Shown here in pieces: positions 26,608 to 63,355 of a stretch of DNA of 64,000 bases. The translations under genes were made by a program, and so were the position numbers. Each line of letters opens with the position of its first letter. The first letter of the stretch is position 1. The stretch spans positions 2,496,001-2,560,000 of the forward strand of contig CP084166.1 in NCBI GenBank assembly GCA_021513695.1. Reading direction: 5' to 3'. A model generated the notes under the pieces. The model was not told the origin of the DNA, did not search any database, and saw only the letters and a program-made list of their open reading frames with translations. This DNA is from Candidatus Heimdallarchaeum aukensis. Its GTDB lineage: Archaea > Asgardarchaeota > Heimdallarchaeia > Heimdallarchaeales > Heimdallarchaeaceae.

Positions 26608-26717
26608 TAGTACTTCCGCAATAAGTTGACTGATTTCTATAGGTTAAAATTATAGGAGTTCATACTATCATTGGCGTGTTCTCAATTCATACTTTTTGAG
26701 ATAATTCGGAAGTACTA
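26608..26717. mobile_element. 110-bp MITE derived from the IS4/ISH3-type element family (copy 1)
   Basis: Termini TAGTACTTCCG...CGGAAGTACTA. Flanking direct repeat CTATAA (26602-26607 and 26718-26723). It is the exact reverse complement of 50806-50915. Confidence 0.85.
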
Positions 26718-30499: not shown

Positions 30500-33400
30500 T
30501 CATTCTTCACAAGGCCCACCTACTATTTTTGAGTATGGGCAAGTTCTACATCTACTATACTCATCATCCTTATTTGGGTTTTTCACAAAGCCTTGTTCCA
30601 CATCAATTTTTATTCTGTTTTTAATAGCATCTTCAACTTGAGATTTGAAAGATTCAAGGTTATGATTTATTTTTACAACTTTGAATTGGGGATGTACAAA
30701 AACAATCAATGTTCCAATATCTTTGATATTTGGATAATTTTGTTTTAAAAGCCAAGCATATGTTGTTAGTTGATTCTCATACATTGTGTAGAGATCGCTG
30801 CTTTCATTTGGTGGATTTCCAGTTTTATAGTCAATGATTATCCATTTTTCTTCTTCAATTTTAAATAAAAGATCTATAGTTCCTGTTATTATAACGGGTT
30901 TATAATCATCGTAGGAAAATTTTGCTTGTAACTGATATTCTGTGAAAAAATCGGATGTTCTCTTATTGAAAAGATTTGAAATTGTTTTGTCTTTTAGATA
31001 AGAATTTATTATTTGTATAAGATGTTGTTTCGCATTATCAACTTGAATTTTACTAAGAATATTTAAAATAAGTTCAGAATCTATTTTTTCTTCTGAATTT
31101 ATTGCTTTATGAAATGATTCCATGAACAAATGGACTATATCTCCCCATTCTGCTGCTGAATTGATCCCCTTTGGAGGTGTTGTTCCTGGGGGTAAATGTT
31201 CCTCTCCAAATTTGCCAGATAAATAATAATTATCCACTTTATTTAAAACTGCATAGGCATATCTTCGGGGACAGAAAAGTAGATTGTAAAGTTCTTTTGC
31301 TGCAATAGATATGGGTACAAATTGTATATTTGCTAGTGTATTTAGTTTTTTAATTTTACTTCTTTTAACTTCTTTCTCATAATCTTTTTCTCTAAAAGAT
31401 AGAGGTTGATCTTCTTTAGGTGATGGCTTAATGATCTCTATTTTAATCTCTTCAACAATTTCTTTTTCTTCTAAACTATCGATAACTAGATTCTGTTCAT
31501 TCCAATTTAATGTTACATAAAAACAATCTCCTTCTGGGTTAAAATCTCTATTATTTAAAACTCCAAGTTTGTTTTGAATAGTATACATCCACCTAGTATA
31601 TTTATTTCCCTTAGGTTCTATAAGACCAAGATGAAAAATAAGATGATCTCTTGCTCTTGTAGTCGCAACATAAAAAAGGCGCCAAAATTCAGCAATATCT
31701 TTTTTGATAAATTGATTTAAAGGGTTGTTAAACTTAAAAACACCATTGTCTTCTCTTTTGTTACTAACCCAAAAGATTCCAGACGATAGATTACCAGGTA
31801 TTAATCTCTCTCCTGGGCCATTAATATCTTCTACTGTTTCTACATTAATATCAATTGGTTTAATAGCCACACCAATCTCTCTATCTAAAAATATTCTTTC
31901 CCTATAAGGGTCTCTTAATACATCTTTCACAAGCAGATCTGGAATAATTACTATTGGGAATTCAAGTCCTTTGCTTCTATGTATTGTCATTATTTTTACG
32001 CTATTTTTTGATTCGTAATCACCGATTTTTATGGTAGAATAATCTTGTTTTCCAGCATAAGCTCTATCTCGTAATACTTTTATTTTATAAACAAATTCAT
32101 TATACGAAAGTAGTTCTTCTTCTTCCCATTCTTTAATAATTTCAGTCAGTAATCTGAGATTTGCTAGAGTCTCAAAAGAACTTGAGGATGAAGAGAGAAA
32201 AACGATGTCTAATGCGCCATGATTAATTATTTTATCGATAAGGACTGCTTTTTCACCTTCTCTATCCCATCTTAGGTCATTTCTGAGTTTCAATAGCGCT
32301 TTTAATCTAATTAAATCTGTCTCCTTAATAATATTCTTTGAAGGTTGATTTTCTATTTCCATAAGTGCTTTTCTGAGCATAAAATTATGTGAAGCTAAAA
32401 ATCGAAGTGTTTCATCAGATATTGCAATTAAAGGAGAACGAAGTATATGTAATAATGCATATTTGTTGTGAGGGTTTGCAAACCAATCTAAAAAATCAAC
32501 AATTAAAGAAACTTCATGTTGTGCAAATAAAGAATTATCCAAAATCAGAGAATAGTTGATGCCGTATCTATCAAATAGCCTCAGAAAAGGATAGATCTTA
32601 CTTCTTCTTCTGAATAGTAAAGCAATATCTCCTGGCAAGGGAGATCTCTCTATTATTTCATCCTTTTCTTCTTCATAAATATTCAATCTGATTTTTTGGT
32701 CAAGAATATCCTTTATGCAAGAAACTATAGCTTCAGCATCTTTAGAATCCCAGTCAGCCCAATATATTGGCTTATTATTTGGTCCTTGGGTAAAAATGGT
32801 GTGGATGTTAGCAGTTTCTTTTTTATTTTTAGCGGTATTCCTTTTTGGAATTAACGGTACATAATCTACTTTTATTTTTCCAATTCTACCTGTAACATTA
32901 GAATCAAAAATCTCGCTGAATAGTGAATTAATGAGATAGATAATATCTGGTTGACTTCTAAAATTAGAAACCAATGCAACATATTCAGGATTCTTTATTT
33001 CAAAGGGCAAATCAATTTCATTTTTTGTTTTTGCATATTCTATAATTGAAGAGAATATTCCTGGCTCTGCTGATCTCCATTGATAAATTGACTGTTTAAC
33101 ATCTCCTATAATCATAATATTATTCTTTGTTCTAATTGTATCTTCATTTCGAATTAAATGTGAAATGATACGACACTGTACATAACTTGTATCTTGGAAC
33201 TCATCAATTAAAATATGATCAAACTTTAAGTTTAGACTTTTAACCCATGGACTTGTAGGATTTTTTTCTAAATATTCCCACAACATATATGCGATATCAA
33301 TATAGGTCAAATGTCCTGTTTTTTTAGTTTTTTCTGTATAAAGTTCGTCATATTTTTCTAGTAATAAGGTAAATTTATCGTATCTATCGCGCATCTCATA

Positions 33401-34222
33401 ATATATATGTTCAAGCGACTTTGACAATGTCAAAATTTCATCTTCATCTAGCTCATTCAATTTTTGTTCATTATTCTCGTTTGTAAGATTAATTATGATC
33501 TCTTTAGCTTGTTCTATTGAAAAAGGAGGAGTGTAATTAGAAAATAACATTGTAATTGTTTTTTTCATTTTCTTTGAGTAGTCTTCTCTAGTCCAACAAA
33601 ATTCTCTTGATTTTTGATGAACTTGACGTATCATGTCAAAAAGCCCAGGTAATCTAAAGTATCCAGTATACACTTCTTGGTATATTTCTTCCAACTCTTC
33701 AACGATATCTCTATATTTACTTTCTGTTTTAAGATAATCTTCAATCTCCTCAACAATTTCATCAGAATCCATTAAGAGAGCTACGTCAAATAAAGGGTAT
33801 AATGATATTTCAAGGCATATTTCTTGTAGCAACTTTAGAAGGTAAGAGTCAATGGTTTGAATAAATGACTCTGTTTCTAACCAACGGAAAAGATCATTGG
33901 ATATGGAAATGGTTTCATCCTTTCGAATCTCATTTAATCGTGACTTTAATTTAATTTTAAGCTGTCGAGATGCTTCTCTACCAAAAGATAGTACCAGTAT
34001 TCTTTCGAAAGGATTAATTTTTTCGTTGTTACGATGTTCTACTAAAGTAATATTGCTCAAAATTTCAATTAATGTGGTTGTTTTTCCTGTACCAGCTCCT
34101 GCATCAACAACCACTCGCCCTGAACCAAAAAAATATTTTTCCACAACTCTTTTCTGATCTTCAGTCAACTTTGATTTTTCTATTAATTCTTTTACTATTT
34201 TCAGTGTTGAGTCATTCATCAT
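30500..34222 (-). CDS. AddA/AdnB-like SF1 (UvrD-family) helicase fused to a C-terminal Cas4/RecB-type PD-(D/E)xK nuclease with Cys cluster
   Basis: Helicase motifs: 'DAGAGTGKTT', 'LIDEFQDTS', 'GDVKQSIYQWRSA', 'VSNFRSQ', 'TIHRSKGLEFP', 'FYVATTRARDHL'. Nuclease motifs: 'CPRRYAY', 'GTIDLLF...WIIIDYKTG', 'QLTTY', 'CRTCPYSKIVGGPC'. Confidence 0.85.
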   Translation of the reverse strand: MMNDSTLKIVKELIEKSKLTEDQKRVVEKYFFGSGRVVVDAGAGTGKTTTLIEILSNITLVEHRNNEKINPFERILVLSFGREASRQLKIKLKSRLNEIRKDETISISNDLFRWLETESFIQTIDSYLLKLLQEICLEISLYPLFDVALLMDSDEIVEEIEDYLKTESKYRDIVEELEEIYQEVYTGYFRLPGLFDMIRQVHQKSREFCWTREDYSKKMKKTITMLFSNYTPPFSIEQAKEIIINLTNENNEQKLNELDEDEILTLSKSLEHIYYEMRDRYDKFTLLLEKYDELYTEKTKKTGHLTYIDIAYMLWEYLEKNPTSPWVKSLNLKFDHILIDEFQDTSYVQCRIISHLIRNEDTIRTKNNIMIIGDVKQSIYQWRSAEPGIFSSIIEYAKTKNEIDLPFEIKNPEYVALVSNFRSQPDIIYLINSLFSEIFDSNVTGRIGKIKVDYVPLIPKRNTAKNKKETANIHTIFTQGPNNKPIYWADWDSKDAEAIVSCIKDILDQKIRLNIYEEEKDEIIERSPLPGDIALLFRRRSKIYPFLRLFDRYGINYSLILDNSLFAQHEVSLIVDFLDWFANPHNKYALLHILRSPLIAISDETLRFLASHNFMLRKALMEIENQPSKNIIKETDLIRLKALLKLRNDLRWDREGEKAVLIDKIINHGALDIVFLSSSSSSFETLANLRLLTEIIKEWEEEELLSYNEFVYKIKVLRDRAYAGKQDYSTIKIGDYESKNSVKIMTIHRSKGLEFPIVIIPDLLVKDVLRDPYRERIFLDREIGVAIKPIDINVETVEDINGPGERLIPGNLSSGIFWVSNKREDNGVFKFNNPLNQFIKKDIAEFWRLFYVATTRARDHLIFHLGLIEPKGNKYTRWMYTIQNKLGVLNNRDFNPEGDCFYVTLNWNEQNLVIDSLEEKEIVEEIKIEIIKPSPKEDQPLSFREKDYEKEVKRSKIKKLNTLANIQFVPISIAAKELYNLLFCPRRYAYAVLNKVDNYYLSGKFGEEHLPPGTTPPKGINSAAEWGDIVHLFMESFHKAINSEEKIDSELILNILSKIQVDNAKQHLIQIINSYLKDKTISNLFNKRTSDFFTEYQLQAKFSYDDYKPVIITGTIDLLFKIEEEKWIIIDYKTGNPPNESSDLYTMYENQLTTYAWLLKQNYPNIKDIGTLIVFVHPQFKVVKINHNLESFKSQVEDAIKNRIKIDVEQGFVKNPNKDDEYSRCRTCPYSKIVGGPCEE

Positions 34223-37200
34223 CTACATCTCCATTTTCTTCTGTAGGTAGGGTTAATATTGGTGAGTAACCACTGCAGAGCCTTCTGTAGTCACACAAAA
34301 CACACTCTGTATTTATGCGTTTTGAGGCATCAAAAATTCCTTTTTTAATATCCGATAATCTTTCATTTAGACTAGAAATCACATCGTCCATTTTTTGAGT
34401 AAAATCCCTTTTTTTTGTCCAAGAACCAATAAATATGGGATTAGAAAGGATGTCTTCCGGATAAATCTCTGAAACTTTATAATAACTGTATTTGGTTTTA
34501 GAGTACTGTTTGTATATTCCTCTACGTTTTCCAGAAAATGGTTCAATAAACTCTATGCCAAAAAAAGGTTTTCCCATTTTCGTTTCATATAAATATTGAG
34601 TAATCGCTATTCTAACATCATTTATTCTTCCACTTAAAAATTTGTTAAAATTACTTCCTTCAAAATTATCCGACAATGAGTACGATGTATTGTTGTAAAA
34701 AACAGGTAAATAAAATGTGTTTTTAGTTCCATCAGGTTTTGTGATTGTTATACTATCCATCCTATGTCTTGGAAAAAGAATAACACAACCATTATCTAAA
34801 ATTATATCTGTTTCATTTTCTACTTCCCAATTTCTGGTTATTTTATATTCAATTTCATTTATAACTATTTTTTCTTCATTTTCAAAAATAGGTTTGTACT
34901 TTTTACAATAATAATCTGAATATCGTTCAAAAATATTTTCTATTTTATCTTCAAAATCTATTCCTTTTATCTCCATTCGTTCAGGAACTTCTTGTTGAAT
35001 GAAGTTTAATAATTTATTTTTTTCTTCATCTTTCAGATATATTTTACGTAGAAGCTTTGGATAGAAACCAAATCGGTAATGTAATCTTTTTGTTGTGTAA
35101 AAAGGAATCTCACGTGAAATCTCATGACCTTTATACCAATTGAAATAAAATTGGTAAAAATAATATCTTAGTGGGCAATCATAAATAAGAGATAGTTCAT
35201 GGATTCTATAAGGATCACCAACTATTTTTTCAAAAATATCATTTGATAAATAAAATTGATTAACCTTTGCTTCAATTCTATGTGGAGGATTTAGGTATCT
35301 TTCAATTCTGTCATTTATTTCTTTTTCTTGAATATCCATATTTGCATAGGCGTAAATGTCAAGAAATTCTTCTTCTGTTATTTGTGGAAAAATATTATTA
35401 TTTGCTCTATGGAGAATCCAGTTATATAATTGTAGTATCTCCTTTTCAGAAAGTAATGCCAAGTTTTGTTGAAAATCGCCGGTGCTAGTTAAAATATTGA
35501 AGATCTCTGTAGGATAAATCTTTCTCTCTTTTTTCTTTATTTCTTTTACATTATCAGTAAAAGAAGACCAATCTAGTCTTCTACCCTCTCTGTCAAGGTA
35601 AGTTCGCGATAAAAATAAAGTGTCTTTAGAAGAAAATAATACCTGTTCAAAGAAGTCTAACTCAGAAGCATAATCATTTTCGGGGCTTAAATTGTAAATA
35701 TATCCATAAGAGGGATCTTTTTTTACTAAATGAGATTTCTTTCTTTCTAGTTCTTTTTTGATTTCTAGTGGTAGAAAGATTGAATCAGGACATTTTCTCG
35801 GAAATTCGTCGGTTTGAAAACCAAGAAGGAAAATATACTCCGCATCTCTAAAGTAAACGTTTGCAGCATCAATAAAACAGACAGTATTTTGATCAAAATT
35901 TTGAATACCAAAAGTTTCTCTACCTATTAATTCACCAAGTGCTTGAGAAACATATTTCCATTTAATTATATCAGCTTCATTTTTATTTAGTAAATAATCC
36001 AAATAAGCAGATAGGTTTGAAACTTTATTTTTCAATCTATTAGCTTGATATGTAGGGTGAGTTTGAAAAAACTGTTGTCTTTTGTTTTCTATTCCTGGTC
36101 CTTCAATTGAATGAGTTATAACTTTTCTAATATTTCGAATAAAGAAATAAATAAGAGAATTTATTATTCTGACAAAATCACTAGGTTTATTGGATGAAAT
36201 CTCTAATAGCTCTTTAATATAGTTCAAATATTCAATTATTATTTTTCTCAACCATGAAGGGAGTTCTGCTATAGCTTTTTTCCAATCTTCAAAAGATAAT
36301 TTTTCAGTATTTGACTGCTGTATAAGCTTTTTCTCTAAAAAATCTAAACTTTCTTCCAAACTTAAAAAAATTTTATCATCTAGAGGATACTTGGCTGAAA
36401 GACTCCTTTTAGGCAGACATAATCCTAATCTTAAGGGATTCATTATGTCTGCATAACTGATATTTTTCTCTTCTTCTATTTTAACAAGTAAATCAACTGT
36501 AGCTTTTAAGAAGCGATAAGCTGTAGAGTATGCTAAAGGATAACGCGTTTCTATAGAATAGGGAATTCCTGCAGTTTCAAAAATATTTTTGATGTAAGTT
36601 TTATATTTGCCGATATTTCTCGCTAAAACAAGTATCTCATGCGGTTGAACTTTTTCCAATAAGATTAATTTCCTTATTTGTTGAGAGATCTCTTTTATTT
36701 CCATGTAAGGGGAAGGTGCCGAAATAAAATTAATTTTTGTTTCATCAAATCTGTAGTCTTTCATATTTTTCTTTAAAAACAGTTTCCAATGAGAATATTC
36801 TGAAGATTGCTCTGAAAGTTTTTCAATAAGTGAAATATATTCATAATCAATGTTAATATATTTTAATCTTTGAATAAGCTGATCTTTTGTTCCTTTACCA
36901 ACAAAAATATGAACATTGAGCTCTGGAAACTTGTTGGCTATCGAAGTTATCAGATGTAAAGTAGGCGAGTCATAAACTGTTATTCCCATAACGTAAATGT
37001 TCTTTAAATTAGGATACAAATTTAACCATTTACTCTCTTCTCCGTTGTCAATTACTTGATAGGTTTCAGTAATTAAATGGCTCCTAGATAAGAAGTTATC
37101 ATTTTTTATCAGTTTCAATTCTTTATTCAGAAGATTGTGAATTATTTGAAAAACTTCATAAATTTCAACTGCTCTTATCTTCCAAAATGGAGATTCAATT

Positions 37201-37667
37201 TTGTTACACATTTCTAGTAATTTATCATGATCTAAACCACTGTTAGAACTTCTAAAATATTCATCTAATTCTTGATTAAAAATAGTTAGCACGTCTGGAT
37301 CTTTAAAGTCAATCTGTTGAAAAAATCTTTTTGTACTTATTGAAACTTTGATATCTCCATTTTTTATTTGTTCAACTATGTCTAAAATCAACTGCTTCCT
37401 AACAGATTCTGATAAAATTGTTGGTTCTTTATTCGTGTAGGTTTTTAGGATTTTTATGGCTAAATCTTCAAAAGTTGTTAATTCTACCTTGTTAGTAAAA
37501 TCTTTTACATTAAGAGCTAATTTTCTTCTTAGATTCTGCAAGACTATAAAACCAGGTAAAATACATAATGATTCTATCTTTTGAGAGGGAGTAGGACTTT
37601 CTAATTCTTTTAATCTTACAAATAAATATTTTTCAGGATTACCATAAAGAATAGATAATTTACCCAT
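34212..37667 (-). CDS. AddB-like subunit: degenerate (Walker-A-less) helicase-like region plus C-terminal nuclease-like domain with Cys cluster
   Basis: N-terminus 'LSILYGNPEKY' occupies the position where AddB has GxGKT. 'CPLRYYFYQF' and terminal 'CVLCDYRRLC' mark the nuclease-like domain. Size and the 11-nt overlap with the AddA-like gene support pairing. A catalytic D/ExK is not clearly recognisable. Confidence 0.6.
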   Translation of the reverse strand: MGKLSILYGNPEKYLFVRLKELESPTPSQKIESLCILPGFIVLQNLRRKLALNVKDFTNKVELTTFEDLAIKILKTYTNKEPTILSESVRKQLILDIVEQIKNGDIKVSISTKRFFQQIDFKDPDVLTIFNQELDEYFRSSNSGLDHDKLLEMCNKIESPFWKIRAVEIYEVFQIIHNLLNKELKLIKNDNFLSRSHLITETYQVIDNGEESKWLNLYPNLKNIYVMGITVYDSPTLHLITSIANKFPELNVHIFVGKGTKDQLIQRLKYINIDYEYISLIEKLSEQSSEYSHWKLFLKKNMKDYRFDETKINFISAPSPYMEIKEISQQIRKLILLEKVQPHEILVLARNIGKYKTYIKNIFETAGIPYSIETRYPLAYSTAYRFLKATVDLLVKIEEEKNISYADIMNPLRLGLCLPKRSLSAKYPLDDKIFLSLEESLDFLEKKLIQQSNTEKLSFEDWKKAIAELPSWLRKIIIEYLNYIKELLEISSNKPSDFVRIINSLIYFFIRNIRKVITHSIEGPGIENKRQQFFQTHPTYQANRLKNKVSNLSAYLDYLLNKNEADIIKWKYVSQALGELIGRETFGIQNFDQNTVCFIDAANVYFRDAEYIFLLGFQTDEFPRKCPDSIFLPLEIKKELERKKSHLVKKDPSYGYIYNLSPENDYASELDFFEQVLFSSKDTLFLSRTYLDREGRRLDWSSFTDNVKEIKKKERKIYPTEIFNILTSTGDFQQNLALLSEKEILQLYNWILHRANNNIFPQITEEEFLDIYAYANMDIQEKEINDRIERYLNPPHRIEAKVNQFYLSNDIFEKIVGDPYRIHELSLIYDCPLRYYFYQFYFNWYKGHEISREIPFYTTKRLHYRFGFYPKLLRKIYLKDEEKNKLLNFIQQEVPERMEIKGIDFEDKIENIFERYSDYYCKKYKPIFENEEKIVINEIEYKITRNWEVENETDIILDNGCVILFPRHRMDSITITKPDGTKNTFYLPVFYNNTSYSLSDNFEGSNFNKFLSGRINDVRIAITQYLYETKMGKPFFGIEFIEPFSGKRRGIYKQYSKTKYSYYKVSEIYPEDILSNPIFIGSWTKKRDFTQKMDDVISSLNERLSDIKKGIFDASKRINTECVLCDYRRLCSGYSPILTLPTEENGDVDDE

Positions 37668-38530: not shown

Positions 38531-38665
38531 ATGAAGCAAAAAGCGAAATTATTTTTTGAGAAGTTAAGAGATATATTTATAGGTGCCCAAGTTGAAGGAA
38601 ACTCTGGCTTTATCAAATTCATGAGTTGGAGTTTTGTAAAATAAAATTTTCAATTTGGTGGTAAG
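38531..38665 (+). pseudogene. internally deleted relic of a type III mod gene (5' ~110 nt fused to the last ~30 nt) immediately upstream of res
   Basis: The 37-codon ORF 'MKQKAKLFFEKLRDIFIGAQVEGNSGFIKFMSWSFVK' aligns to Mod aa 9-40 ('KEEQFFKQLKDIFCGARVEGDSGFINLMRIKS'). The 14 nt AATTTGGTGGTAAG at 38652-38665 are identical to the 3' end of mod (45562-45575). Confidence 0.6.
38657..38662 (+). promoter_or_regulatory. GGTGGT Shine-Dalgarno-like element 3 nt upstream of the res TTG start
   Basis: 'tttGGTGGTaagTTGagt'. The same sequence is the Trp-Trp-stop end of mod, so it may simply be a remnant of coding sequence. Confidence 0.25.
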
Positions 38666-41659
38666 TTGAGTGAGCGATTACCTTTAATTTATCAAGATCT
38701 GGTCAATGAAATTTCAATTGATGCAATACCAATTGAATGGTTTTCTAAAATTAATTTAAAAGAGTTTTCAAACAAAATTTCATTATATGATTATCAACAG
38801 CAAGCTTTAGAAAGTGCAATAAAATTTCTATTTTATTATTATAGTTTATTGCATAAATATTGCATCTCAGAACGTGAAAAACACAACATTGAACGAAAAA
38901 GCAAATTATACACTGAATTAGTGAATAGAGAAAAGACAATTGTAGAATCATTATTTATTGATAATAGAAAAAACAGAGCTCTTTTTTATCAGCTTAAACA
39001 GTATTATGGCGTAATACCTACAATGAACTACGAGAAAATATCCTTTAGCAACTTTGTTAACCGAATGAGTTTCTGGATGGCAACAGGTTCTGGTAAAACT
39101 ATTGTATTAATCAAGATCATTGAATTATTGTATGAACTTGGTCAAGCGAAATTAATACCTAACCATGATATACTAATTTTAACTCAAAGAGATGATCTTA
39201 TTGAACAGATTAGAGCTCATATTAGACAATTTAACGAAAAAAGAACTAAGAAGATAAAACTATGGAATTTGAGAAACTTTGATGCTGTAAAAAATGGACG
39301 AGTTTTAGTCTTTAGAGATGAAATTAATGTCTTTATATATAAATCTGATTTAATCTCAAATCAAACAAAAGAGAAACTGTTAAATTTTGAGGACATCGAA
39401 AACAATGGCAATTGGTATGTTTTGTTAGATGAAGCTCATAAAGGAGATAAAGAAGATTCAAAAAGGCAACAATATTATTCTGTCCTTTCGAGAAATGGGT
39501 TTCTGTTTAATTTTTCAGCAACTTTTACCGACCCTTGGGATATCATCACCACAACTTTTAATTTTAATTTGCAAAAATTTATTGAATCAGGGTATGGGAA
39601 GAATATTTTTCTTTCTGAGAAAGAGTTTATCTCATTTGAAAAAGAAAGGGATTTTAATGAGGAGAGTAAACGCAAAATTGTATTGCAAACACTCATTGTT
39701 CTAGCAGCTATAAAAAAGATTAGGAAAAAAATTGAACAAAGTTTAGGTGACAATTTTTACCATTCTCCACTACTTTTAGGCCTTGTGAATACAGTGAGTA
39801 CCAAAGATTCTGATCTTGAATTATTTTTTAAGGAGCTAGCAGCAATTGCTAAAGGAGAGATTAATGAAGAAGAAGTAACTATAGCCAAGCAAGATATATT
39901 AAAAGAAATTAAAAATACTCCAGGTTATTTTTTCGGAAAAAGTTCTATTAAATATAATGAGAATTTATTGGATAATATTAACTATAGTTGCATTCTTCAG
40001 GAGGTTTTTAACACTTCTACTCCAGGAAATATTGAGGTACTGAAAATTCCTCAAAACAAGCAAGAATTAATTTTTAAGCTTAAGACTTCTGATCTTCCAT
40101 TTGCCCTCCTAAAAATTGGTGATATCACAAGATGGCTAAGAGAAAAATTGACCAACTACGAAGTCTATGAATCCCATGACAATGAAAGTTATTTCAAAAA
40201 TATTTCTAACTCTGATTTCATTAATATATTAATGGGGTCAAGAGCTTTTTATGAAGGTTGGGATTCCAATAGACCAAATGTTATAACATTTATTAATATT
40301 GGAAAAGCAGATGCAAAAAAATATGTTATTCAAGCAATAGGAAGAGGAATAAGGATTGAGCCTGTAAAAGGAAAACGGAAAAGAATTAGTTTTCTTAAAG
40401 CTGAAATTGATCCTAGTATAGAAAAACAAATATATAATAAGTTAGCACCAGAGGATATAGCTCTAATTGAAACACTCTTCGTTTTTGGGACAAAAAAGAA
40501 ACACATTGCAGATGTTCTAGGTGCATTAAAAAGAGAAAAAATAACTGTTGGTAAATCCCTAGAATTAGCCAAAAATGATATGGCGATAGATTTACCTCTT
40601 TACATTCCAGTTTACAAGAGAAGAGCAACTTCGACAGAAGTTGAAAAGCTTCCAAGTTTTAAAGGAAATCCAAAGTTATTGAAAAAATATATTGAATGGT
40701 TAGATGATGATAAAGTACTTTTTGCCCTTCTTTCAGAAAATCAAAAAATTGAACCAAAAATAATTCAACAAATAAAAGAATACGTTGAAAAAGGAAAATT
40801 TGACATAAATGAAGATATGAACATAAATAATCAATTGAACAAATTAGTACGACATTTGACCCTAGTTCAAAGCGATTTTGAAACTTTAAAACCACTAGAA
40901 GAAGAGATAATTCATTTTAAAAATATTAGGCTTTTGTTGGATGATGAAGAAATAAGTAAAATAAAAGAAATTGTGAAAAAAGTTCAAAGATACAAATGTT
41001 CACAAAATGAAGAAATGAAATTGGATAAACTTTTAGAAAACAAAAAAATTACATTGAATGAATATAAGACAAAACTTAAACAGTTAGCTGAATATAAACA
41101 GGAAATAGAATATAGAAATATACTCTTTAAACACATGTTGCAACACTACTACAACCCAATGATTATCTCAAAAGAAGAGCACTTTACTCTAATAAAACAT
41201 ATTATCACCGTTCCAAGTGAAAAAAAATTCATAGAGAAGTTATCTAAATTTATTTCTGATGGTAAAAGTTTTTTTGATGAAGATTTTGATTGGTGGATAT
41301 TCAGCAAGTTAAATGAGCATTTAGATGAAGTCTATATACCCTATTATGATCCTGAACATGGGCGAATAAGAAAATTTATTCCCGACTTTATTTTTTGGTT
41401 TAAAAAGAATAAGAACTACGATATTGTCTTTGTTGATCCAAAAGGAACTGCACATATAAATTATGTAAATAAGATATTAGGTTACAAGGTTTTATTTGAA
41501 GAAAATAATATGGTACGGGTTTTCAACTTTAATGGTCTTAACGTCAGAATATATCTGCTACTTTATACTAGTGATAAAAATAAAGTACGTGCCTATTCAG
41601 AATACTGGATTGATAGTATTAGTGATATCAAAAAAGTTCTAGTGAGAAATGGAGAGTAG
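38666..41659 (+). CDS. res: type III restriction enzyme Res subunit (SF2 helicase + C-terminal PD-(D/E)xK endonuclease)
   Basis: 'MATGSGKTIV', 'VLLDEAHKG', 'FNFSATF' and 'QAIGRGIRI'. C-terminal 'IPDFIFWF...IVFVDPKGT'. TTG start. Overlaps the following mod reading frame by 11 nt. Confidence 0.85.
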   Translation: MSERLPLIYQDLVNEISIDAIPIEWFSKINLKEFSNKISLYDYQQQALESAIKFLFYYYSLLHKYCISEREKHNIERKSKLYTELVNREKTIVESLFIDNRKNRALFYQLKQYYGVIPTMNYEKISFSNFVNRMSFWMATGSGKTIVLIKIIELLYELGQAKLIPNHDILILTQRDDLIEQIRAHIRQFNEKRTKKIKLWNLRNFDAVKNGRVLVFRDEINVFIYKSDLISNQTKEKLLNFEDIENNGNWYVLLDEAHKGDKEDSKRQQYYSVLSRNGFLFNFSATFTDPWDIITTTFNFNLQKFIESGYGKNIFLSEKEFISFEKERDFNEESKRKIVLQTLIVLAAIKKIRKKIEQSLGDNFYHSPLLLGLVNTVSTKDSDLELFFKELAAIAKGEINEEEVTIAKQDILKEIKNTPGYFFGKSSIKYNENLLDNINYSCILQEVFNTSTPGNIEVLKIPQNKQELIFKLKTSDLPFALLKIGDITRWLREKLTNYEVYESHDNESYFKNISNSDFINILMGSRAFYEGWDSNRPNVITFINIGKADAKKYVIQAIGRGIRIEPVKGKRKRISFLKAEIDPSIEKQIYNKLAPEDIALIETLFVFGTKKKHIADVLGALKREKITVGKSLELAKNDMAIDLPLYIPVYKRRATSTEVEKLPSFKGNPKLLKKYIEWLDDDKVLFALLSENQKIEPKIIQQIKEYVEKGKFDINEDMNINNQLNKLVRHLTLVQSDFETLKPLEEEIIHFKNIRLLLDDEEISKIKEIVKKVQRYKCSQNEEMKLDKLLENKKITLNEYKTKLKQLAEYKQEIEYRNILFKHMLQHYYNPMIISKEEHFTLIKHIITVPSEKKFIEKLSKFISDGKSFFDEDFDWWIFSKLNEHLDEVYIPYYDPEHGRIRKFIPDFIFWFKKNKNYDIVFVDPKGTAHINYVNKILGYKVLFEENNMVRVFNFNGLNVRIYLLLYTSDKNKVRAYSEYWIDSISDIKKVLVRNGE

Positions 41660-42479
41660 TTATATGAACACAAAAGAAGAGCAATTTTTCAAACAATTAA
41701 AGGATATATTTTGTGGAGCTAGAGTTGAAGGTGATTCTGGTTTTATAAACTTAATGAGAATTAAATCTAGTTACTTTAATGCTCTATTTAACGAATTAAA
41801 AAAGGAAATTAATATTAAAATTGCAAATGAACCTTCTTTTAAAGAAGAGCTCTTTGATAAACTCTACACCTTCTTTAAAACTTATTTTTCAGATACTGGT
41901 AGTGTTTATTTTAACTATACTCCTTTAAAATCCAAAGTATATGAAAAAGTTTATACCAACAATGAAGACACAATGCTTTTTTGGAAAACTCATATGCTTC
42001 ATTATGTTAAAACAGCAAGAATATGGAATAATTTGAAAATAAGTTTAGAAATAAATAACAAAGATTACATCTTTTTATTTGATATATCTGATCTCAACAA
42101 ACAAGATTCTGCTGAAAAAAATGATGTTATTTATATTTTAGATAGCATCACTGATAACATTGTGAAGTTTAATGTTGTTTACTCAAAAAGAGGGAAAACT
42201 ACGAAATTAACAGAAATTGTAAAAAAACTATATAAAAACAACATTCCTATTGGAGTAGATCAATTATCTGGCCTTTTTATGATATTTGAAAAACAGAATG
42301 AGGTTGATTATTTCATTAATAAAAACGCCAACATGTTTCTAAAGGAACAGTTTAATATGTGGCTCAAACAATATGTTCTAGATGTAGATAGTATTTTTAA
42401 TAGACGGCGATTAAATCAATTGAAAATATTGCATGATATAGCTTATAAAATTATAGATTTCACAGGAAATAGAATATAG
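41649..42479 (+). pseudogene. truncated mod copy (N-terminal 271 aa + 5 junction-encoded codons) created by the duplication
   Basis: Identical to the 43013-45574 product up to 'YKIIDF', then 'TGNRI*' read from res-derived sequence. Confidence 0.8.
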
Positions 42480-42498
42480 AAATATACTCTTTAAACAC

Positions 42499-43023
42499 AT
42501 GTTGCAACACTACTACAACCCAATGATTATCTCAAAAGAAGAGCACTTTACTCTAATAAAACATATTATCACCGTTCCAAGTGAAAAAAAATTCATAGAG
42601 AAGTTATCTAAATTTATTTCTGATGGTAAAAGTTTTTTTGATGAAGATTTTGATTGGTGGATATTCAGCAAGTTAAATGAGCATTTAGATGAAGTCTATA
42701 TACCCTATTATGATCCTGAACATGGGCGAATAAGAAAATTTATTCCCGACTTTATTTTTTGGTTTAAAAAGAATAAGAACTACGATATTGTCTTTGTTGA
42801 TCCAAAAGGAACTGCACATATAAATTATGTAAATAAGATATTAGGTTACAAGGTTTTATTTGAAGAAAATAATATGGTACGGGTTTTCAACTTTAATGGT
42901 CTTAACGTCAGAATATATCTGCTACTTTATACTAGTGATAAAAATAAAGTACGTGCCTATTCAGAATACTGGATTGATAGTATTAGTGATATCAAAAAAG
43001 TTCTAGTGAGAAATGGAGAGTAG
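42499..43023 (+). pseudogene. duplicated res 3' fragment (C-terminal endonuclease region, 174 codons from an internal Met)
   Basis: Identical to the last 174 aa of Res. Whether it is expressed cannot be judged from the sequence. Confidence 0.75.
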
Positions 43024-45574
43024 TTATATGAACACAAAAGAAGAGCAATTTTTCAAACAATTAAAGGATATATTTTGTGGAGCTAGAGTTGAAGGTGATT
43101 CTGGTTTTATAAACTTAATGAGAATTAAATCTAGTTACTTTAATGCTCTATTTAACGAATTAAAAAAGGAAATTAATATTAAAATTGCAAATGAACCTTC
43201 TTTTAAAGAAGAGCTCTTTGATAAACTCTACACCTTCTTTAAAACTTATTTTTCAGATACTGGTAGTGTTTATTTTAACTATACTCCTTTAAAATCCAAA
43301 GTATATGAAAAAGTTTATACCAACAATGAAGACACAATGCTTTTTTGGAAAACTCATATGCTTCATTATGTTAAAACAGCAAGAATATGGAATAATTTGA
43401 AAATAAGTTTAGAAATAAATAACAAAGATTACATCTTTTTATTTGATATATCTGATCTCAACAAACAAGATTCTGCTGAAAAAAATGATGTTATTTATAT
43501 TTTAGATAGCATCACTGATAACATTGTGAAGTTTAATGTTGTTTACTCAAAAAGAGGGAAAACTACGAAATTAACAGAAATTGTAAAAAAACTATATAAA
43601 AACAACATTCCTATTGGAGTAGATCAATTATCTGGCCTTTTTATGATATTTGAAAAACAGAATGAGGTTGATTATTTCATTAATAAAAACGCCAACATGT
43701 TTCTAAAGGAACAGTTTAATATGTGGCTCAAACAATATGTTCTAGATGTAGATAGTATTTTTAATAGACGGCGATTAAATCAATTGAAAATATTGCATGA
43801 TATAGCTTATAAAATTATAGATTTCATTTCTCAGTTTGAAGATGAATTAGTGAAAATTTGGAATAAACCCCGTTTTGTTATTAATTCAAATTATATTATA
43901 ACTTTAGACAAAATTTATAATAGTGATGCTGGTGCAGAAATACTTGAAAAAATAATCAACCATGAAAAATTTACAGAACAAATTAATGAATGGAAAAAAT
44001 TAGGTTTTCTTGAGGATTTTGAGAAAAACAAGCTCTATAATACAACATTAATGGGTAAAGAGTTAAACGATGAGTATAAATTTTTACCTTTAGATACCAA
44101 GTTTTTTGATGAAGAACTTAAATTTTCAATCATATCACTATTTAATAACTTAGATGAATCCTTAGATGGTTGGCTTATACACTCCGAAAATTATCAAGCA
44201 CTAAAAACAATTCTACCTAAATTTAATAATAAAATTAAATCCATATATATAGACCCCCCATATAATACTGGTAGTGATTCCTTTATCTACAAGGATAAAT
44301 TCAAACATTCTTCTTGGTTAACAATGATGTGTGACAGGTTGGAGCTAGCTAAAGAATTGCTTTGTGATGATGGTGTTCTTTATTCTAGTATTGATGATAA
44401 TGAAGTGGATTATTTAAGTATTCTATTACAAAAAATCTTCGGTGAAAATAAAGTTGATAAAATGATTTGGAAAAAAGCCAGTGAAGGAAGATGGGGGAAA
44501 ATGAAAAATGTGCGAACTTTCCGTAAAGATCATGAATATGTACTTGTAGCTTTTAAAGAAAAAGAACAGTTGAATAAAATTATAGAAAAACCTCGGTTTT
44601 TAAAACGTTATGGTAATCCAGATAGTGATCCTAGGGGCAATTGGATGTCTGGAACAATATCTAGAAAGGAATCTGCTTCTAATCCAAACCATCCAAATTT
44701 TTATACTGTTACTTCTCCTTCTGGTAAAAAATTTACTAGACAATGGGATGTTCCAAAAGAAGAATTTGATAAACTTAATAGAGAAAAAAGAATCTATTGG
44801 GGGCCAACGGGAGAAAATGTTCCAAGGATTAAAGTATTTGAAAACGAGTACCGTGAAATCACACCCTATTCTGTTTTGATTGATAAAGGAAGTAATACTG
44901 AAGCAAAGGAAGAGTTTATTAATATACTAGGGAAAGAATATGAGAAAATAGTTCATATTCTTAACCCCAAACCGTCTAAACTTATTTCTACTTTACTTCA
45001 GCTTTCGACAAATAAAGATTCTATAATTGTGGATTTTTTTGCTGGTAGTGGAACAACTGCTCATGCTATAATGGCTCTGAATAAAAAGGATAATGGAAAT
45101 AGAAAATTCTTACTAGTTGAAATGGCTGAGTATTTTGAAGATATTATACTCCCTAGAATAAAAAAGTTAGCTTTTTCACTGAATTGGAAGAAAGGAAAAC
45201 CAGAGGATTATGATGGTAATGGAATTTTCATTAAGTATTTTCAATTAGAGCAATATGAACAAACATTACAAAAAGTAGTTTATAGAGAAGGTGATCCATT
45301 CCTTGACATAGAAAGTTCAGATATTTATTGCCAATATATTTTCCTTAAAGATCAAAAACTTCTAGATGCAATTGACATCAATTATGAAGAAAATAGGATT
45401 AAAGTTGATTTTTCAAAACTTTATTCAAATGTAGATATAGGTGAAACATTATCCTATTTATTAGGAAAAAAAATTAAGAGAGTTGACTCAAGCTACGTAA
45501 TATTTACTGATGGAGAACAAATAAATTATTACTCTCTTGACTTCAAGGTAATAAAACCATTAATTTGGTGGTAA
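43013..45574 (+). CDS. mod: type III R-M Mod subunit (beta-class N6-adenine/N4-cytosine DNA methyltransferase)
   Basis: Motif IV 'IYIDPPYNTGSD' precedes motif I 'VDFFAGSGTTAHA', which is the beta-class order. Confidence 0.85.
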   Translation: MESSYMNTKEEQFFKQLKDIFCGARVEGDSGFINLMRIKSSYFNALFNELKKEINIKIANEPSFKEELFDKLYTFFKTYFSDTGSVYFNYTPLKSKVYEKVYTNNEDTMLFWKTHMLHYVKTARIWNNLKISLEINNKDYIFLFDISDLNKQDSAEKNDVIYILDSITDNIVKFNVVYSKRGKTTKLTEIVKKLYKNNIPIGVDQLSGLFMIFEKQNEVDYFINKNANMFLKEQFNMWLKQYVLDVDSIFNRRRLNQLKILHDIAYKIIDFISQFEDELVKIWNKPRFVINSNYIITLDKIYNSDAGAEILEKIINHEKFTEQINEWKKLGFLEDFEKNKLYNTTLMGKELNDEYKFLPLDTKFFDEELKFSIISLFNNLDESLDGWLIHSENYQALKTILPKFNNKIKSIYIDPPYNTGSDSFIYKDKFKHSSWLTMMCDRLELAKELLCDDGVLYSSIDDNEVDYLSILLQKIFGENKVDKMIWKKASEGRWGKMKNVRTFRKDHEYVLVAFKEKEQLNKIIEKPRFLKRYGNPDSDPRGNWMSGTISRKESASNPNHPNFYTVTSPSGKKFTRQWDVPKEEFDKLNREKRIYWGPTGENVPRIKVFENEYREITPYSVLIDKGSNTEAKEEFINILGKEYEKIVHILNPKPSKLISTLLQLSTNKDSIIVDFFAGSGTTAHAIMALNKKDNGNRKFLLVEMAEYFEDIILPRIKKLAFSLNWKKGKPEDYDGNGIFIKYFQLEQYEQTLQKVVYREGDPFLDIESSDIYCQYIFLKDQKLLDAIDINYEENRIKVDFSKLYSNVDIGETLSYLLGKKIKRVDSSYVIFTDGEQINYYSLDFKVIKPLIWW

Positions 45575-45953
45575 GATCTACTCAATCAAAAAAATAGAGT
45601 ATAAATATTGTTTAAAGAAATTATCTGCCCATTAAATCATAATTTTTGTTGTTGTTTGATATCATTTTCTATATACAAACTCCCTAATCAACCATAAACT
45701 TGTGAACTACCTCTTTTATCTCTTATTTCCTTCCAAAGATGTTTTAACCACAATCTTTCTTAATTTCTCTAAGTTACGATCAGGATTGTTCATATTGTAT
45801 CATTTACCCTCGTAACCCACTTTTTATCTATTTGTTACCATTATGGGTGGCGTAAACAATTATTTTAAATGTTTTAGTAATATTTAAAAGATAAAAGATC
45901 TGCTTTGGACTAATTTATGCCTTCAGTGATAGAGCTAACCTTATCTTGTTTCC

Positions 45954-47033
45954 ATGACATATCAAAGGTGGAAGATTAAAGTGGGTGATATACTTACAGA
46001 TAAAAGTTTAAAATTCAGAAACAATTCAATTACTCTTGAAGTCTTTTGTGACGAAATAAACAAGGTAAGACTCCCCTATGATAATAGTTGGTGGATGTAT
46101 TTAGGTGCATTATTCGTTCCAGTAACCAAAAAACAAGAATTAATTGACACCCTTCTGAATCTTCGCTGTATTAAACATCATAACTGGCATTGGGATACTG
46201 CAAATTGCCCTCATAAGTGCAAATATCACACATCCAATAATGCTGAACTACACTTTCATAGTATCCATAAACGTATTGATAAATTTAAGATTGCAAAAAA
46301 GTGGCTATCTTTCTTAGTAGAGGAAAATAACAAGAGAGATCTTGGGTTAATTTATTTTTATATTCTTGGATTGGATTTAACTAAACTAAATCTTGAAAAT
46401 TTTGGAGAAAAAAAGGGTGTAGATATGAATATATATAATAGGTTTTTTAGAACCGTTATATCGGGAGCAAAATACTTCTTCAATGAATATGAAATCATTT
46501 TTATTAATAAAATTTACCATGATAAAGGAAATCAAGAAAAACATAGATACTTCCCATGGTATACCCCATACAAATTAAATATCAATGATAATAAGTTATT
46601 TATACTTGATAAAGACATTAGATTTGTAGATTCTAATCATAAGAACTATCCTGATACTATGGGAAATGATTTTCGTCGCGAATCTCAACTAATTCAATTT
46701 ATTGATATAATTCTTGGAAGTGTGCACTGTTTATTACATGCTACATCAAAACATCCTAAAAAAATTGAGCTTGCACAAATAATGGAACCATTACTGGAGC
46801 GATTAATGTATAAACCTCAAAATAAGAATAGTAAGTATCACTATTACAGAAAACAACAAATTAAGTTTTTTCCAAAAAATCCTATTAACACTCATGAAAA
46901 TAAGTTAAAACAGTTAGATATGCAAGGGGATCTTATTGAAACAAAAATATTAGAATCAAATAACTTTTACACAAAAAGAAAGATAATGTTAAAAGATCCA
47001 AAACAACAAACGCTTGATCCTTTCTTTGTATAG
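45954..47033 (+). CDS. hypothetical protein, possibly DUF3800-like
   Basis: 'VFCDEINK...WWMYLGALFVP' near the N-terminus and 'ESQLIQFIDIILGSVHCLL' near the C-terminus resemble the DUF3800 blocks. Weak, from memory of the consensus. Confidence 0.3.
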   Translation: MTYQRWKIKVGDILTDKSLKFRNNSITLEVFCDEINKVRLPYDNSWWMYLGALFVPVTKKQELIDTLLNLRCIKHHNWHWDTANCPHKCKYHTSNNAELHFHSIHKRIDKFKIAKKWLSFLVEENNKRDLGLIYFYILGLDLTKLNLENFGEKKGVDMNIYNRFFRTVISGAKYFFNEYEIIFINKIYHDKGNQEKHRYFPWYTPYKLNINDNKLFILDKDIRFVDSNHKNYPDTMGNDFRRESQLIQFIDIILGSVHCLLHATSKHPKKIELAQIMEPLLERLMYKPQNKNSKYHYYRKQQIKFFPKNPINTHENKLKQLDMQGDLIETKILESNNFYTKRKIMLKDPKQQTLDPFFV

Positions 47034-47352
47034 TGAAATAGTTTGACCTCATATGTTCTTTCATGATAAATTACTTTTAGTAAAAATTAGTTCACGTAAC
47101 ATCTTGTAACAGAGTTATATGTATTTTAGTTTTATACCAAAATAATTTTGAAAGTGAGCTAAAAGTTTTTCAATATCAACTACTATTCAATATCCTCTTT
47201 TCTTATTTGGTGGACTTAACAAAAAGGCATGTTCTTGTCGACAACTGGTGTCTTCTAAAAAGGTCTTGTGTGCAAAAATCGCTATTTTAAACTCCTTAAA
47301 CTAAATACACCTATCTTATTGAAAGGTAGGTTAAAATAAACATTTATTAGAT

Positions 47353-48540
47353 TTATCGATTCTTCAAATGTTCTAATTCTTTTAGATCTTTTATACTTTT
47401 GACAAGAATCTTCTTTTTAAACTCCGAATTATAGAAATATGCTAGTTGTTTATGGTCTATTTCTCGTTTGTATTTTACTTCTATTGCACAATCTTTCCCT
47501 ACTATAAAATCAATTTCTTTCCCATTAATGACACTGTAGCAAGGATTTTTGTTTTTTAGTTTTAAAAATACTAGATTCTCAAACAGTGCTCCCTTGTCCT
47601 TATAACCTACAAACATTGTTCGTATTCCTGTATCTGCAATATACACTTTTTTTGGTCCTCTTATTTGCTCATTTAATGATTTTGAACATTTAGGAACCAA
47701 GTAAATAAGATAGGTCTCTTCTAAATATGATAGATAGTTAGCAATTGTCTCATTTTTTATTCCTAGCACTTTTCTTAACTTATTAATTGTTAATCTTTTT
47801 CCTAGCCTCTCACAGAGCAGTACGAACAACTCTTCAAGCTTTTTTATATTCCTTATATTGTACCTGGAGACTATATCTTTGTATAGAATATCTTTAACCA
47901 ACTGTAGTAATTTCTCTTTATTTCTTGATAATACATATTCTGGCATTCCTCCTTCACGCAAATATTCTTCTACGTATTTCTCATATAAGTAGGATTCAGT
48001 TTTTGTTATTGTAAGATTATTAAAATTCAAATATTCTTCAAAAGTCAAAGGCTCTATTTTAACCACAATGTTCCGCCCAGTAAGGTAAGCTTTCTTATCC
48101 TTTACTACTAGACTATTTGAACCACTCGCATAAATTTTGACATTTTCACTATCGTGTAAGACTTTAAGTTCTCGTTCGAAGTCCTCCTTATATTGAACCT
48201 CATCAAAAAATAAGAATAATTTCTCTTTTCTTTTTAACCCGTGAATCTTTCTAACTTCCTCTACGATATCTAGCAGACTAATGGTGTCAAGTGCTGGATG
48301 CTCTAGACTTAAGTAAAGTAGTTTTTCAGGTTGTGCTATTTTGTCTTTTAAGATTTTTGCGATTAATTGCTTCATAATAGTTGTTTTTCCAACTCTTCTT
48401 AATCCCGTAATTATGACTATTTCTGAACTGTTCAATAATTTATATAATCTACTCAAATATTCTTCTCTTTTTATTCCTGGAGTAGAATATTCCTCTTCCC
48501 ACCATGGATTATACAAAAAGAGAATTTCTTCAAGATCCAT
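47353..48540 (-). CDS. AAA-type ATPase of the archaeal/bacterial DUF4143 (COG1373-like) family
   Basis: Walker A 'ITGLRRVGKTT' and Walker B 'LFLFFDEVQY'. The C-terminal region has 'EIDFIV...AIEVKY', a PD-(D/E)xK-like tail typical of this family. Confidence 0.75.
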   Translation of the reverse strand: MDLEEILFLYNPWWEEEYSTPGIKREEYLSRLYKLLNSSEIVIITGLRRVGKTTIMKQLIAKILKDKIAQPEKLLYLSLEHPALDTISLLDIVEEVRKIHGLKRKEKLFLFFDEVQYKEDFERELKVLHDSENVKIYASGSNSLVVKDKKAYLTGRNIVVKIEPLTFEEYLNFNNLTITKTESYLYEKYVEEYLREGGMPEYVLSRNKEKLLQLVKDILYKDIVSRYNIRNIKKLEELFVLLCERLGKRLTINKLRKVLGIKNETIANYLSYLEETYLIYLVPKCSKSLNEQIRGPKKVYIADTGIRTMFVGYKDKGALFENLVFLKLKNKNPCYSVINGKEIDFIVGKDCAIEVKYKREIDHKQLAYFYNSEFKKKILVKSIKDLKELEHLKNR

Positions 48541-50805: not shown

Positions 50806-50915
50806 TAGTACTTCCGAATTATCTCAAAAAGTATGAATTGAGAACACGCCAATGATAGTATGAACTCCTATAATTTTAACCTATAGAAATCAGTCAACTT
50901 ATTGCGGAAGTACTA
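50806..50915. mobile_element. 110-bp MITE (copy 2), inverted relative to copy 1
   Basis: Same termini as copy 1. Flanking direct repeat CAAAAA (50800-50805 and 50916-50921). It matches the reverse complement of 26608-26717 at 110/110 positions by my base-by-base comparison. Confidence 0.85.
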
Positions 50916-55253: not shown

Positions 55254-55491
55254 TTTAACTGTTAAATTAAAGTTTATAGATAACTAAATCTCATTTTTTG
55301 TCACTCGTAGGTATAACTCAATTTTGCTAAGTAAAAGCGAAAAAAGTTTACACAAATTTGGAGGGATATTTCTTAATTTAGAAATTGATTAAAGCTTCAA
55401 TATTTACGTAAATATATTGTAGATTTGAATGATAGAACAGCTAAACTTTTCCTTTTTTCCAGAATCTTATTTTTTTCTACAATTAATGAGG

Positions 55492-55923
55492 TTAGACTTC
55501 TTTTTCCTTCTTTCTTAGAAACTCGACGATAGAATCACATATTATCGTGAAATCTTCCAGATCTTCTTTTAATAATTCAAAAACAAGTTCGTCATTTATT
55601 TTTCCATATCTGTGTTCAAGGATATTCCTAAAACTTTTCATTTTTCTAATTTTCTCTATTATTTCTTTGTCTAGTATCTTATTCTTTTCTATATTATCAA
55701 TAACACTTGATTCTCCGTCAGGAATACCTAGCTTCAAATCTGCATTTATTATTGCTAAAATATCTAAAACCAGTTCTATACTATATTCTAAACGCTTATA
55801 AATTCCATCTTTTATTAACCCTAAATTCAAAAACCCTTCTAAATCTGTGGGTAAATGGTTTGAAATAAGTTCTAGATTTTCTTCAATCTCTTCTAGTTTT
55901 GCTACAATTATGTCATTTCTCAA
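55492..55923 (-). CDS. hepT: HEPN/DUF86 toxin (HepT-like); TTG start
   Basis: 'SFRNILEHRYGKIN' is the RxxxxH(xY) motif. Located immediately downstream of the MNT gene. Confidence 0.75.
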   Translation of the reverse strand: MRNDIIVAKLEEIEENLELISNHLPTDLEGFLNLGLIKDGIYKRLEYSIELVLDILAIINADLKLGIPDGESSVIDNIEKNKILDKEIIEKIRKMKSFRNILEHRYGKINDELVFELLKEDLEDFTIICDSIVEFLRKKEKEV

Positions 55924-56299
55924 CTAAAACTCTCCTCACGTAATCTTCTCTATATTTTCTAAATCTTTCATAGTCCTTAATAGTTTTGTAGGCAATTTCA
56001 TAAAGTTCTTTGGTTTCGTATAAAACCTTTCCTTTTAAAACCTCTTTTTTTACAGCTAAAGGTAGTGTTTAATAAATTTGGATATCAAACTTTTCCGGTA
56101 GTTCTGCCAAATATTCTACTCTTTTTTTTATTGAAGTTCTTTCATCAATTCCTTCTCTGGTTACTAACGCAAGATCAATATCATTAAATCCGTAATTTTG
56201 TAAATAACTACCAAATAGGATAACTCCTACGACATCTCTATCCTTCTTGGCTTTTTCAACTATTTTTTGCAGATATTTATTAATAATATTTTCTTCCAT
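55913..56299 (-). pseudogene. mntA: minimal nucleotidyltransferase (MntA-like antitoxin) interrupted by an in-frame TAA at 56069-56071
   Basis: N-terminal 76 aa carry 'VILFGSY...FNDIDLALV' (GS...DxD). After the TAA the same frame continues for 51 codons ('TLPLAVKKEVLKGKVLYE...') to the TGA at 55913-55915, overlapping the hepT start by 11 nt as in intact MNT-HEPN operons. Confidence 0.7.
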
Positions 56300-56623
56300 T
56301 AATACTTAATAAAACAGTTGTTCCTTATATCTTTATTTATTTTTTATAGAAATTCAATTGAGTAGAGAAAAAATAGAACAAATAAATTTACATTATCTTT
56401 TTCTCAATTTTTATTTGTAATATTTTCCACTTTAGTCTTGTTTAGAGCAAATTTTTATTTCTAGTAATGCTTTTTTTTGAAAAAATTGACGTAAAACAAG
56501 TGTCCTACCTTTTCTTTTTTCCTGTTTCCTTCGATTTTTTATTTTTTACTGAACTCTGTTTGTATAATTTTATAAATGACTTTTGACCTATGTTGACTAT
56601 ATCAATAAAAATGGGGAAGTTTT

Positions 56624-61480: not shown

Positions 61481-61609
61481 GGATAAAACTATTCGGTTTC
61501 TTTTTTTTATTTTTTCAATATACGCTGCAAGGTCAAAGTTGAATCTTTTTCTGCTTCATTTTAATTTAAATAAGCTTGATTAGAAAATAAGGAAAAAAGT
61601 GATTTTTAT

Positions 61610-63202: not shown

Positions 63203-63355
63203 ATTTGGACTATTTTTCTGAATTGATTACTTATTGACTAAGGTTATTTTTGAGAAATTATAGGAATTTTGAGATAAAAATTAGAAAAAAGAAGTTAAAA
63301 AAAAGAATTGAATTAGCCTTTCGTTTTTTTACCAATATTTTCATCTATAAGACTT

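Follow-up and report, generated by a model that had tools for sequence, protein, structure and literature searches.

The restriction-modification (R-M) locus of Candidatus Heimdallarchaeum aukensis, as deposited in GenBank, carries a perfect tandem duplication across the junction of its restriction gene (res) and its modification gene (mod), and this raises the question of whether the second copy belongs to the organism or to the making of its assembly. The genome is circular (3,081,793 bp) and contains both duplication units. We analysed a window of 64,000 nucleotides of it (assembly GCA_021513695.1, contig CP084166.1, positions 2,496,001 to 2,560,000), and all coordinates below are those of the window. 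A sequence-only reading of this window had proposed either a very recent illegitimate-recombination event or an assembly artefact, with possible heterogeneity in the population. By comparing the window with contigs assembled from sequencing runs, we found that the two-unit form is neither fixed nor the majority state, and that the single unit is the dominant allele.

The repeat and its joint

Direct comparison of the first unit (41099-42462, forward strand) with the second (42463-43826, forward strand) gave 1364 nt with 0 mismatches, and self-BLAST recovered 1365 nt at 100% identity, confirming the identity of the two copies that had been noticed from the sequence. The 1364 identical bases rule out a chance repeat. 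Neither self-comparison nor self-BLAST revealed further long direct repeats in the 64-kb window. Each unit contains Res codons 812-997, which include the whole nuclease motif, and Mod codons 1-271. The novel joint lies between 42462 and 42463, and the 24 nt around it (42451-42474) read TTATAGATTTCA up to the joint and CAGGAAATAGAA beyond it. Since the A at 41098 equals the A at 42462 and the register slides by this one base only, the microhomology amounts to 1 nt; the earlier count of 2 nt had to be corrected, as the CA found on either side of the joint is not shared flank sequence. The 24-mer across the joint occurs once in the window. It was not found in JGI metagenome contigs, a result that is uninformative because the wild-type edge is missing there too and the locus lies outside that collection. 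Insertion of a mobile element was rejected as a source of the second copy, the unit having no terminal repeats, target-site duplication or transposase.

Contigs from the sequencing runs

The deposited genome derives from a single DNA sample, FW4588, whose Illumina PE150 reads were assembled into metaSPAdes contigs. LRScaf then joined these into scaffolds in two rounds, using Nanopore reads of DNA that had first been subjected to REPLI-g multiple displacement amplification (MDA), one run being also amplified by polymerase chain reaction (PCR), and the final genome was polished with Pilon at 346x (PMC8813620). As independent views of the locus we used Logan contigs, in which each 31-mer is present once and unitigs are simplified by SPAdes-like heuristics (PMC12424806). 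Evidence on the joint is at the level of contigs (Logan k=31 assemblies), from which the presence of joint-spanning Illumina reads is inferred.

One Logan contig, SRR15988954_754 (22,778 bp), matched the window at 100% from about 26690 to 50831, minus one unit. It carries intact Mod and Res and runs unbroken across both unit edges. Two more contigs of the same run, compared over 6.4 and 8.9 kb, were likewise 100% identical to the window, and SRR15988954 appears to be the project's Illumina data used for polishing. Because 31-mers are held once in Logan contigs, a one-unit contig is forced by construction, and the informative part is the lack of a break at the unit edges. Were the joint present at flank-like coverage, two different k-mers would follow the unit's last one, and the contig would stop at that point. 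That contig ends can be read as branch points is validated by the contig itself: where it meets a true 110-nt repeat, present in two copies, it stops about 30 nt into either copy. The unbroken unit edges thus mean that in SRR15988954 the joint is either absent or a weak, removable path, and a fixed duplication is effectively excluded for the population sampled by that run. Taken as a test for false duplication, this independent assembly lacks the second copy and has no branch at its edges, provided that the run is the one we suppose.

A second group of contigs, from runs SRR15988958 and SRR15988959, differed from the window by 1-2-nt deletions only, all of them in A/T runs of at least 6. This pattern is a likely Nanopore signature, and these runs are probably the project's Nanopore data. 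As a side observation, Nanopore-run Logan contigs are recognisable by homopolymer deletions and by ends in homopolymers, and are usable as rough independent evidence. The contigs compared (L073, L077 and L078) corresponded to window positions 43797-47418, 44494-46501 and 55364-63289, respectively. Contig SRR15988958_1075 aligns to 43797-47418; its first base precedes 43827, where the sequence after unit 2 begins, by exactly 30 nt (k-1), and a branch at the unit's last k-mer requires a contig to start at 43797. The end at 43797 is the only one in the three Nanopore-run contigs that does not fall within a base run, the others being in runs of 3-6 nt, most of them 5-6; a coincidental start at this position has a probability of roughly one in a few thousand. 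The start of SRR15988958_1075 therefore implies that a divergence directly after the unit's last base exists in that run, for which the joint would be the obvious candidate.

Protein-level searches added little to these comparisons. Simulated Nanopore-frameshift open reading frames (ORFs; n=10) and edge partials were all absent from the protein collection, which stores no edge-touching genes, and control partial genes from L077 and L078 were likewise absent. Exact protein look-ups with the two gene fragments that the duplication creates (Mod', 276 aa, and Res', 174 aa, described below) and with the Res C-terminal partial from 41099 returned nothing new. When Mod' and the Res C-terminus served as homology queries, no near-identical fragment from another run appeared; the many short matches were due to partial or frameshifted genes, together with an apparent length filter, and not to a conserved stand-alone domain.

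Explanations for the two-unit consensus

The reading that we tentatively favour, at a little short of an even chance, is that of a real, unstable tandem duplication present in a minority of genomes and put into the consensus by the assembler. The normal, dominant form of the locus would be one unit, in the order mod stub, res, mod. An illegitimate template switch or unequal exchange at 1 nt of microhomology would have doubled 1,364 bp that take in the 3' end of res and the 5' end of mod, and a minority of genomes in the enrichment that was sequenced would carry the duplication. Such duplications are quickly lost through homologous recombination between the copies, so that a mixed population is expected. 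Reads across the joint would then put a loop into the assembly graph (L-U-J-U-R), and if assembler or scaffolder traversed this loop once, the minority two-unit form would become the deposited consensus. With the joint edge present, loop traversal by SPAdes would yield exactly L-U-J-U-R. The frequency of the two-unit form may be, very roughly, 10-30% (0.1-0.3) of genomes; both the in vivo occurrence of the duplication event and the assembler route to the consensus are likely components of this account. It agrees with the earlier framing of the repeat as a recent illegitimate recombination or an artefact and with the suggested heterogeneity, given that the two-unit form is not dominant and that the edge branch points to the joint in some molecules; the functional ideas attached to that framing did not hold, as described below.

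In several respects the repeat resembles the spontaneous tandem duplications of prokaryotes, which are known to be microhomology-mediated, unstable in the presence of RecA and heterogeneous in populations. The likeness lies in perfect head-to-tail copies, near-zero homology at the joint, a minority or mixed state and the lack of a mobile-element signature. Unlike those cases, however, the host here is an Asgard archaeon known from an enrichment and not from culture, an in vivo origin of the repeat is only presumed, and the duplication adds only gene fragments, with no evident selected gene-dosage benefit.

Several points weigh against a minority duplication. Support for joint-spanning Illumina reads comes by deduction and not from raw reads. 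In the Nanopore-run contigs the right edge alone was recovered, and neither the left edge nor the joint sequence. The frequency range in which metaSPAdes would keep the joint and Minia would drop it appears narrow. A subclonal duplication at a frequency of at least 10% would need drift or selection. Finally, the genome was made with MDA-amplified Nanopore reads and LRScaf (PMC8813620), and an independent benchmark blamed extra duplication on LRScaf scaffolding (PMC10166144).

This last point leads to the strongest competitor, a technical artefact, which we consider a serious though somewhat unlikely alternative. Here all cells would have one unit, and the joint would exist only in amplified or long-read material, as an MDA or PCR chimera, or would result from LRScaf abutting or gap-filling overlapping contig ends; Pilon, fed with reads from the true single copy, would then have equalised both copies. 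The build route described above, with its metaSPAdes contigs, two LRScaf rounds on REPLI-g MDA Nanopore reads (one run PCR-amplified) and 346x Pilon polishing, fits this account, as do the reported inflation of duplication by LRScaf (PMC10166144), its practice of having contigs 'merged' where it estimates a negative gap (PMC6902338) and the lack of a branch at either unit edge in the Illumina-like contig. Over the approximately 39 kb compared, moreover, the extra unit was the sole difference. The repeat also shares with the false duplications of scaffolded or hybrid assemblies (PMC10166144) a perfect tandem copy, an LRScaf and Pilon genome and absence from an independent short-read assembly. 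However, LRScaf works on contig ends only (PMC6902338, PMC10166144). The k=31 Illumina graph offers no contig end at either position unless the joint is present, so ends at the unit edges would imply that the Illumina graph already contained the joint edge. Two differences from known false duplications point the same way, in that the unit edge coincides with a graph branch in an independent assembly of a long-read run, and that no cause at a contig end is visible in the Illumina graph. As to a chimera formed during amplification, the direct chimeras of MDA (phi29) rejoin the same strand within 10 kb, as would be the case here, and the Nanopore DNA was MDA-amplified. Yet MDA chimeras are random, unique to a sample and typically have overlaps of 5-8 nt (PMC9984789), whereas here a joint with 1 nt of overlap seems to be shared by many reads. 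For a branch to be visible in the Nanopore run, many joint reads would be needed, and a single jackpot chimera is unlikely to have supplied them from the thousands of genomes in the MDA input.

An improbable source of the joint is an excised 1,364-bp circle, arising by recombination pop-out or as a random micro-circle and boosted by rolling-circle MDA, with the chromosome keeping one unit; the assembly would then have been misled by Nanopore reads that contain the joint or consist of concatemers. Small circles are favoured by phi29 amplification, and the joint signal appears in the MDA/Nanopore-like run and is not strong in the Illumina-like run, as this account expects. Against it, the unit ends have no recombinase site or repeat, concatemer reads made only of the unit would not lead a scaffolder to place two units between the flanks, and evidence of concatemers was not obtainable.

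That the duplication is real and fixed, with two units in all cells and the GenBank record as the true consensus, is very improbable. The Pilon-polished deposit does contain it, and GenBank annotates its fragments as UJG40414.1 and UJG40415.1, but a joint at full coverage would branch the k=31 graph and break the Logan contig as the 110-nt repeat does, and no such break occurs. This argument assumes that SRR15988954 samples the same population, which we take from the 100% identity over more than 35 kb. The two-unit state is a known kind of event or an artefact, and we give hardly any credence to its being a recurrent and reversible change of copy number by which this Asgard Type III R-M operon adjusts restriction relative to modification. 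In such a case, mod translation might be uncoupled from res, or the Mod N-terminal or Res nuclease fragment might act, and earlier duplication-deletion cycles at the locus could lie behind the permuted gene order and mod stub described below.

The locus, its gene products and its surroundings

The genes at the locus all lie on the forward strand. As the sequence-only reading had stated, one intact res and one intact mod are kept: the ORF inventory gave res at 38666-41659 (997 aa; a superfamily 2 (SF2) helicase with a C-terminal PD-(D/E)xK nuclease) and mod at 43013-45574 (853 aa; a beta-class N6A/N4C methyltransferase with an N-terminal extension of about 400 aa). The two added fragments were also found at the lengths given earlier. 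Mod' (41649-42479, 276 aa) consists of Mod 1-271 and 5 new residues (TGNRI), and Res' (42499-43023, 174 aa) starts at an internal ATG, lies inside Res 812-997 and carries the nuclease motif. Both are annotated in GenBank as hypothetical proteins, Mod' as UJG40414.1 (K9W45_11300) with its start at 41664 and Res' as UJG40415.1 (K9W45_11305) in a 166-aa version. Overlap of res with mod is a matter of start choice; the mod-type start used by GenBank is the ATG at 41664, 4 nt past the res stop.

Proposals that the fragments act as dominant-negative or regulatory products, or that the duplication is a reversible amplification-type switch, found no support. Mod' aligns with positions 1-272 of the PADLOC model MTase_III PDLC03638. 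In related loci, mod is normally one ORF of 810-920 aa, and broken copies end variably (167-420 aa) and not at 271, so that Mod' does not mimic a conserved stand-alone protein. As both full-length genes are intact, the duplication is not an on/off switch; it probably has no functional effect, Mod' and Res' being by-products. Phase-variable mod 'phasevarions' differ in this respect, since no simple-sequence repeat switch is present here and the duplication leaves both genes intact. Scans with bacterial promoter and terminator models gave counts equal to those of shuffles, such models not being relevant to an archaeon, and Rfam and tRNA scans gave no matches.

Type III R-M systems are marked by ATP-dependent cleavage at two inversely oriented unmethylated sites and by hemimethylation by Mod. 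Mod here has the beta-class motif order, in which motif IV (DPPY414) precedes motif I (FAGSG676) and the target-recognition region separates the two, and the Pfam domain N6_N4_Mtase, as expected of the N6A/N4C methyltransferase that serves as the Type III Mod subunit. It matched PADLOC MTase_III PDLC03638 over its full length (E 9e-207), and among Mod chains in the PDB it matched 6k0w_B (1e-41) and EcoP15I Mod 4zcf_A (1e-37). Res has the architecture of the Type III restriction subunit, an SF2 helicase followed by a C-terminal PD-(D/E)xK motif, with Pfam ResIII/DEAD/SWI2_SNF2 domains and a precomputed PF27151 match on its C-terminus. The motifs GSGKT141, DEAH255, SAT284, QxxGRGxR556 and PD906-x16-DPK926 were invariant in 14 aligned Res sequences (its own and 13 relatives), and Res homologues are named 'type III restriction enzyme' by their sources. 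Searches of curated models and structures gave no match for Res in PADLOC (E<=1), NCBIfam or the PDB, the last queried with the single sequence or a 14-sequence profile, and Res therefore represents a divergent lineage. From this architecture the locus is predicted to be a Type III-like R-M system with a divergent Res. A scan of genome contigs found only relatives at 35-60% identity. The Res family is widespread over many bacterial and archaeal phyla, at about 40-45% identity, yet it lacks such matches even though PADLOC includes a model dedicated to its partner Mod over the full length.

The locus resembles EcoP15I and EcoP1I in its beta-class Mod, which matches EcoP15I Mod, in a Res that combines helicase and PD-(D/E)xK nuclease, and in adjacent, co-oriented genes. 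It departs from them in the N-terminal extension of Mod, in a Res that has no PADLOC or PDB match, and in gene order: those systems usually have mod upstream, whereas here res precedes mod and a mod stub lies upstream. The order mod then res was found in about 45 of about 45 relatives with both genes. The stub is a 37-aa ORF (38531-38644), a decayed mod 5' end located 22 nt upstream of res, with 58% identity to resident Mod residues 6-36 (tblastn), and it matches the first approximately 30 Mod codons in 68 related loci; by exact look-up it was present only in the Illumina-like contig. Together, the permuted order and the stub suggest an older operon rearrangement, by duplication and deletion or by replacement of mod. 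Two related loci from metagenome-assembled genomes (L026:5753-9685 and L056:9956-13747) each hold a single frame (1311 and 1264 aa, respectively) in which the N-terminal half of Mod, as far as about residue 490-517, is followed by most of Res; such frames are either natural Mod-Res fusions or deletions, or misassemblies.

The approximately 110-nt element occurs in two perfect copies of opposite orientation, at about 26608-26717 and 50806-50915, which bracket a 24-kb defence-type island holding res and mod. The island genes comprise DUF262/GmrSD, AddAB-like genes, res and mod, DUF3800, a PDC-S01 ATPase, UPF0175 and an Arb2-like gene. The element carries terminal inverted repeats of 11 nt and folds strongly (z -4.5), but it had no match in Rfam; the pair could be a pair of miniature inverted-repeat transposable elements (MITEs) or the borders of an invertible segment. 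Directly upstream of the R-M locus, the island encodes a helicase-nuclease pair that resembles AddA and AddB (1240 and 1151 aa; 30500-37667, reverse strand), the AddA-like protein having UvrD helicase domains and a PDDEXK/Cas4-like C-terminus. Elsewhere in the window, inverted 766-bp repeats with 93% identity (6347-7109 and 14611-15372) each encode a 232-aa rve-type integrase/transposase. Between them lie a second ResIII/DEAD helicase (837 aa), a 273-aa ORF, a NERD-domain protein (564 aa) and an HNH protein (397 aa), a layout that resembles a composite transposon.

For users of this reference Asgard genome, UJG40414.1 and UJG40415.1 are fragments from the second unit and do not reflect the dominant state of the genome, which should not be credited with additional Mod-like or Res-like genes. 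The permuted Type III locus with its mod stub provides a modest lead on the rearrangement of R-M operons. A minority duplication, if real, would give a small instance of structural variation among the genomes of an uncultured Asgard population.

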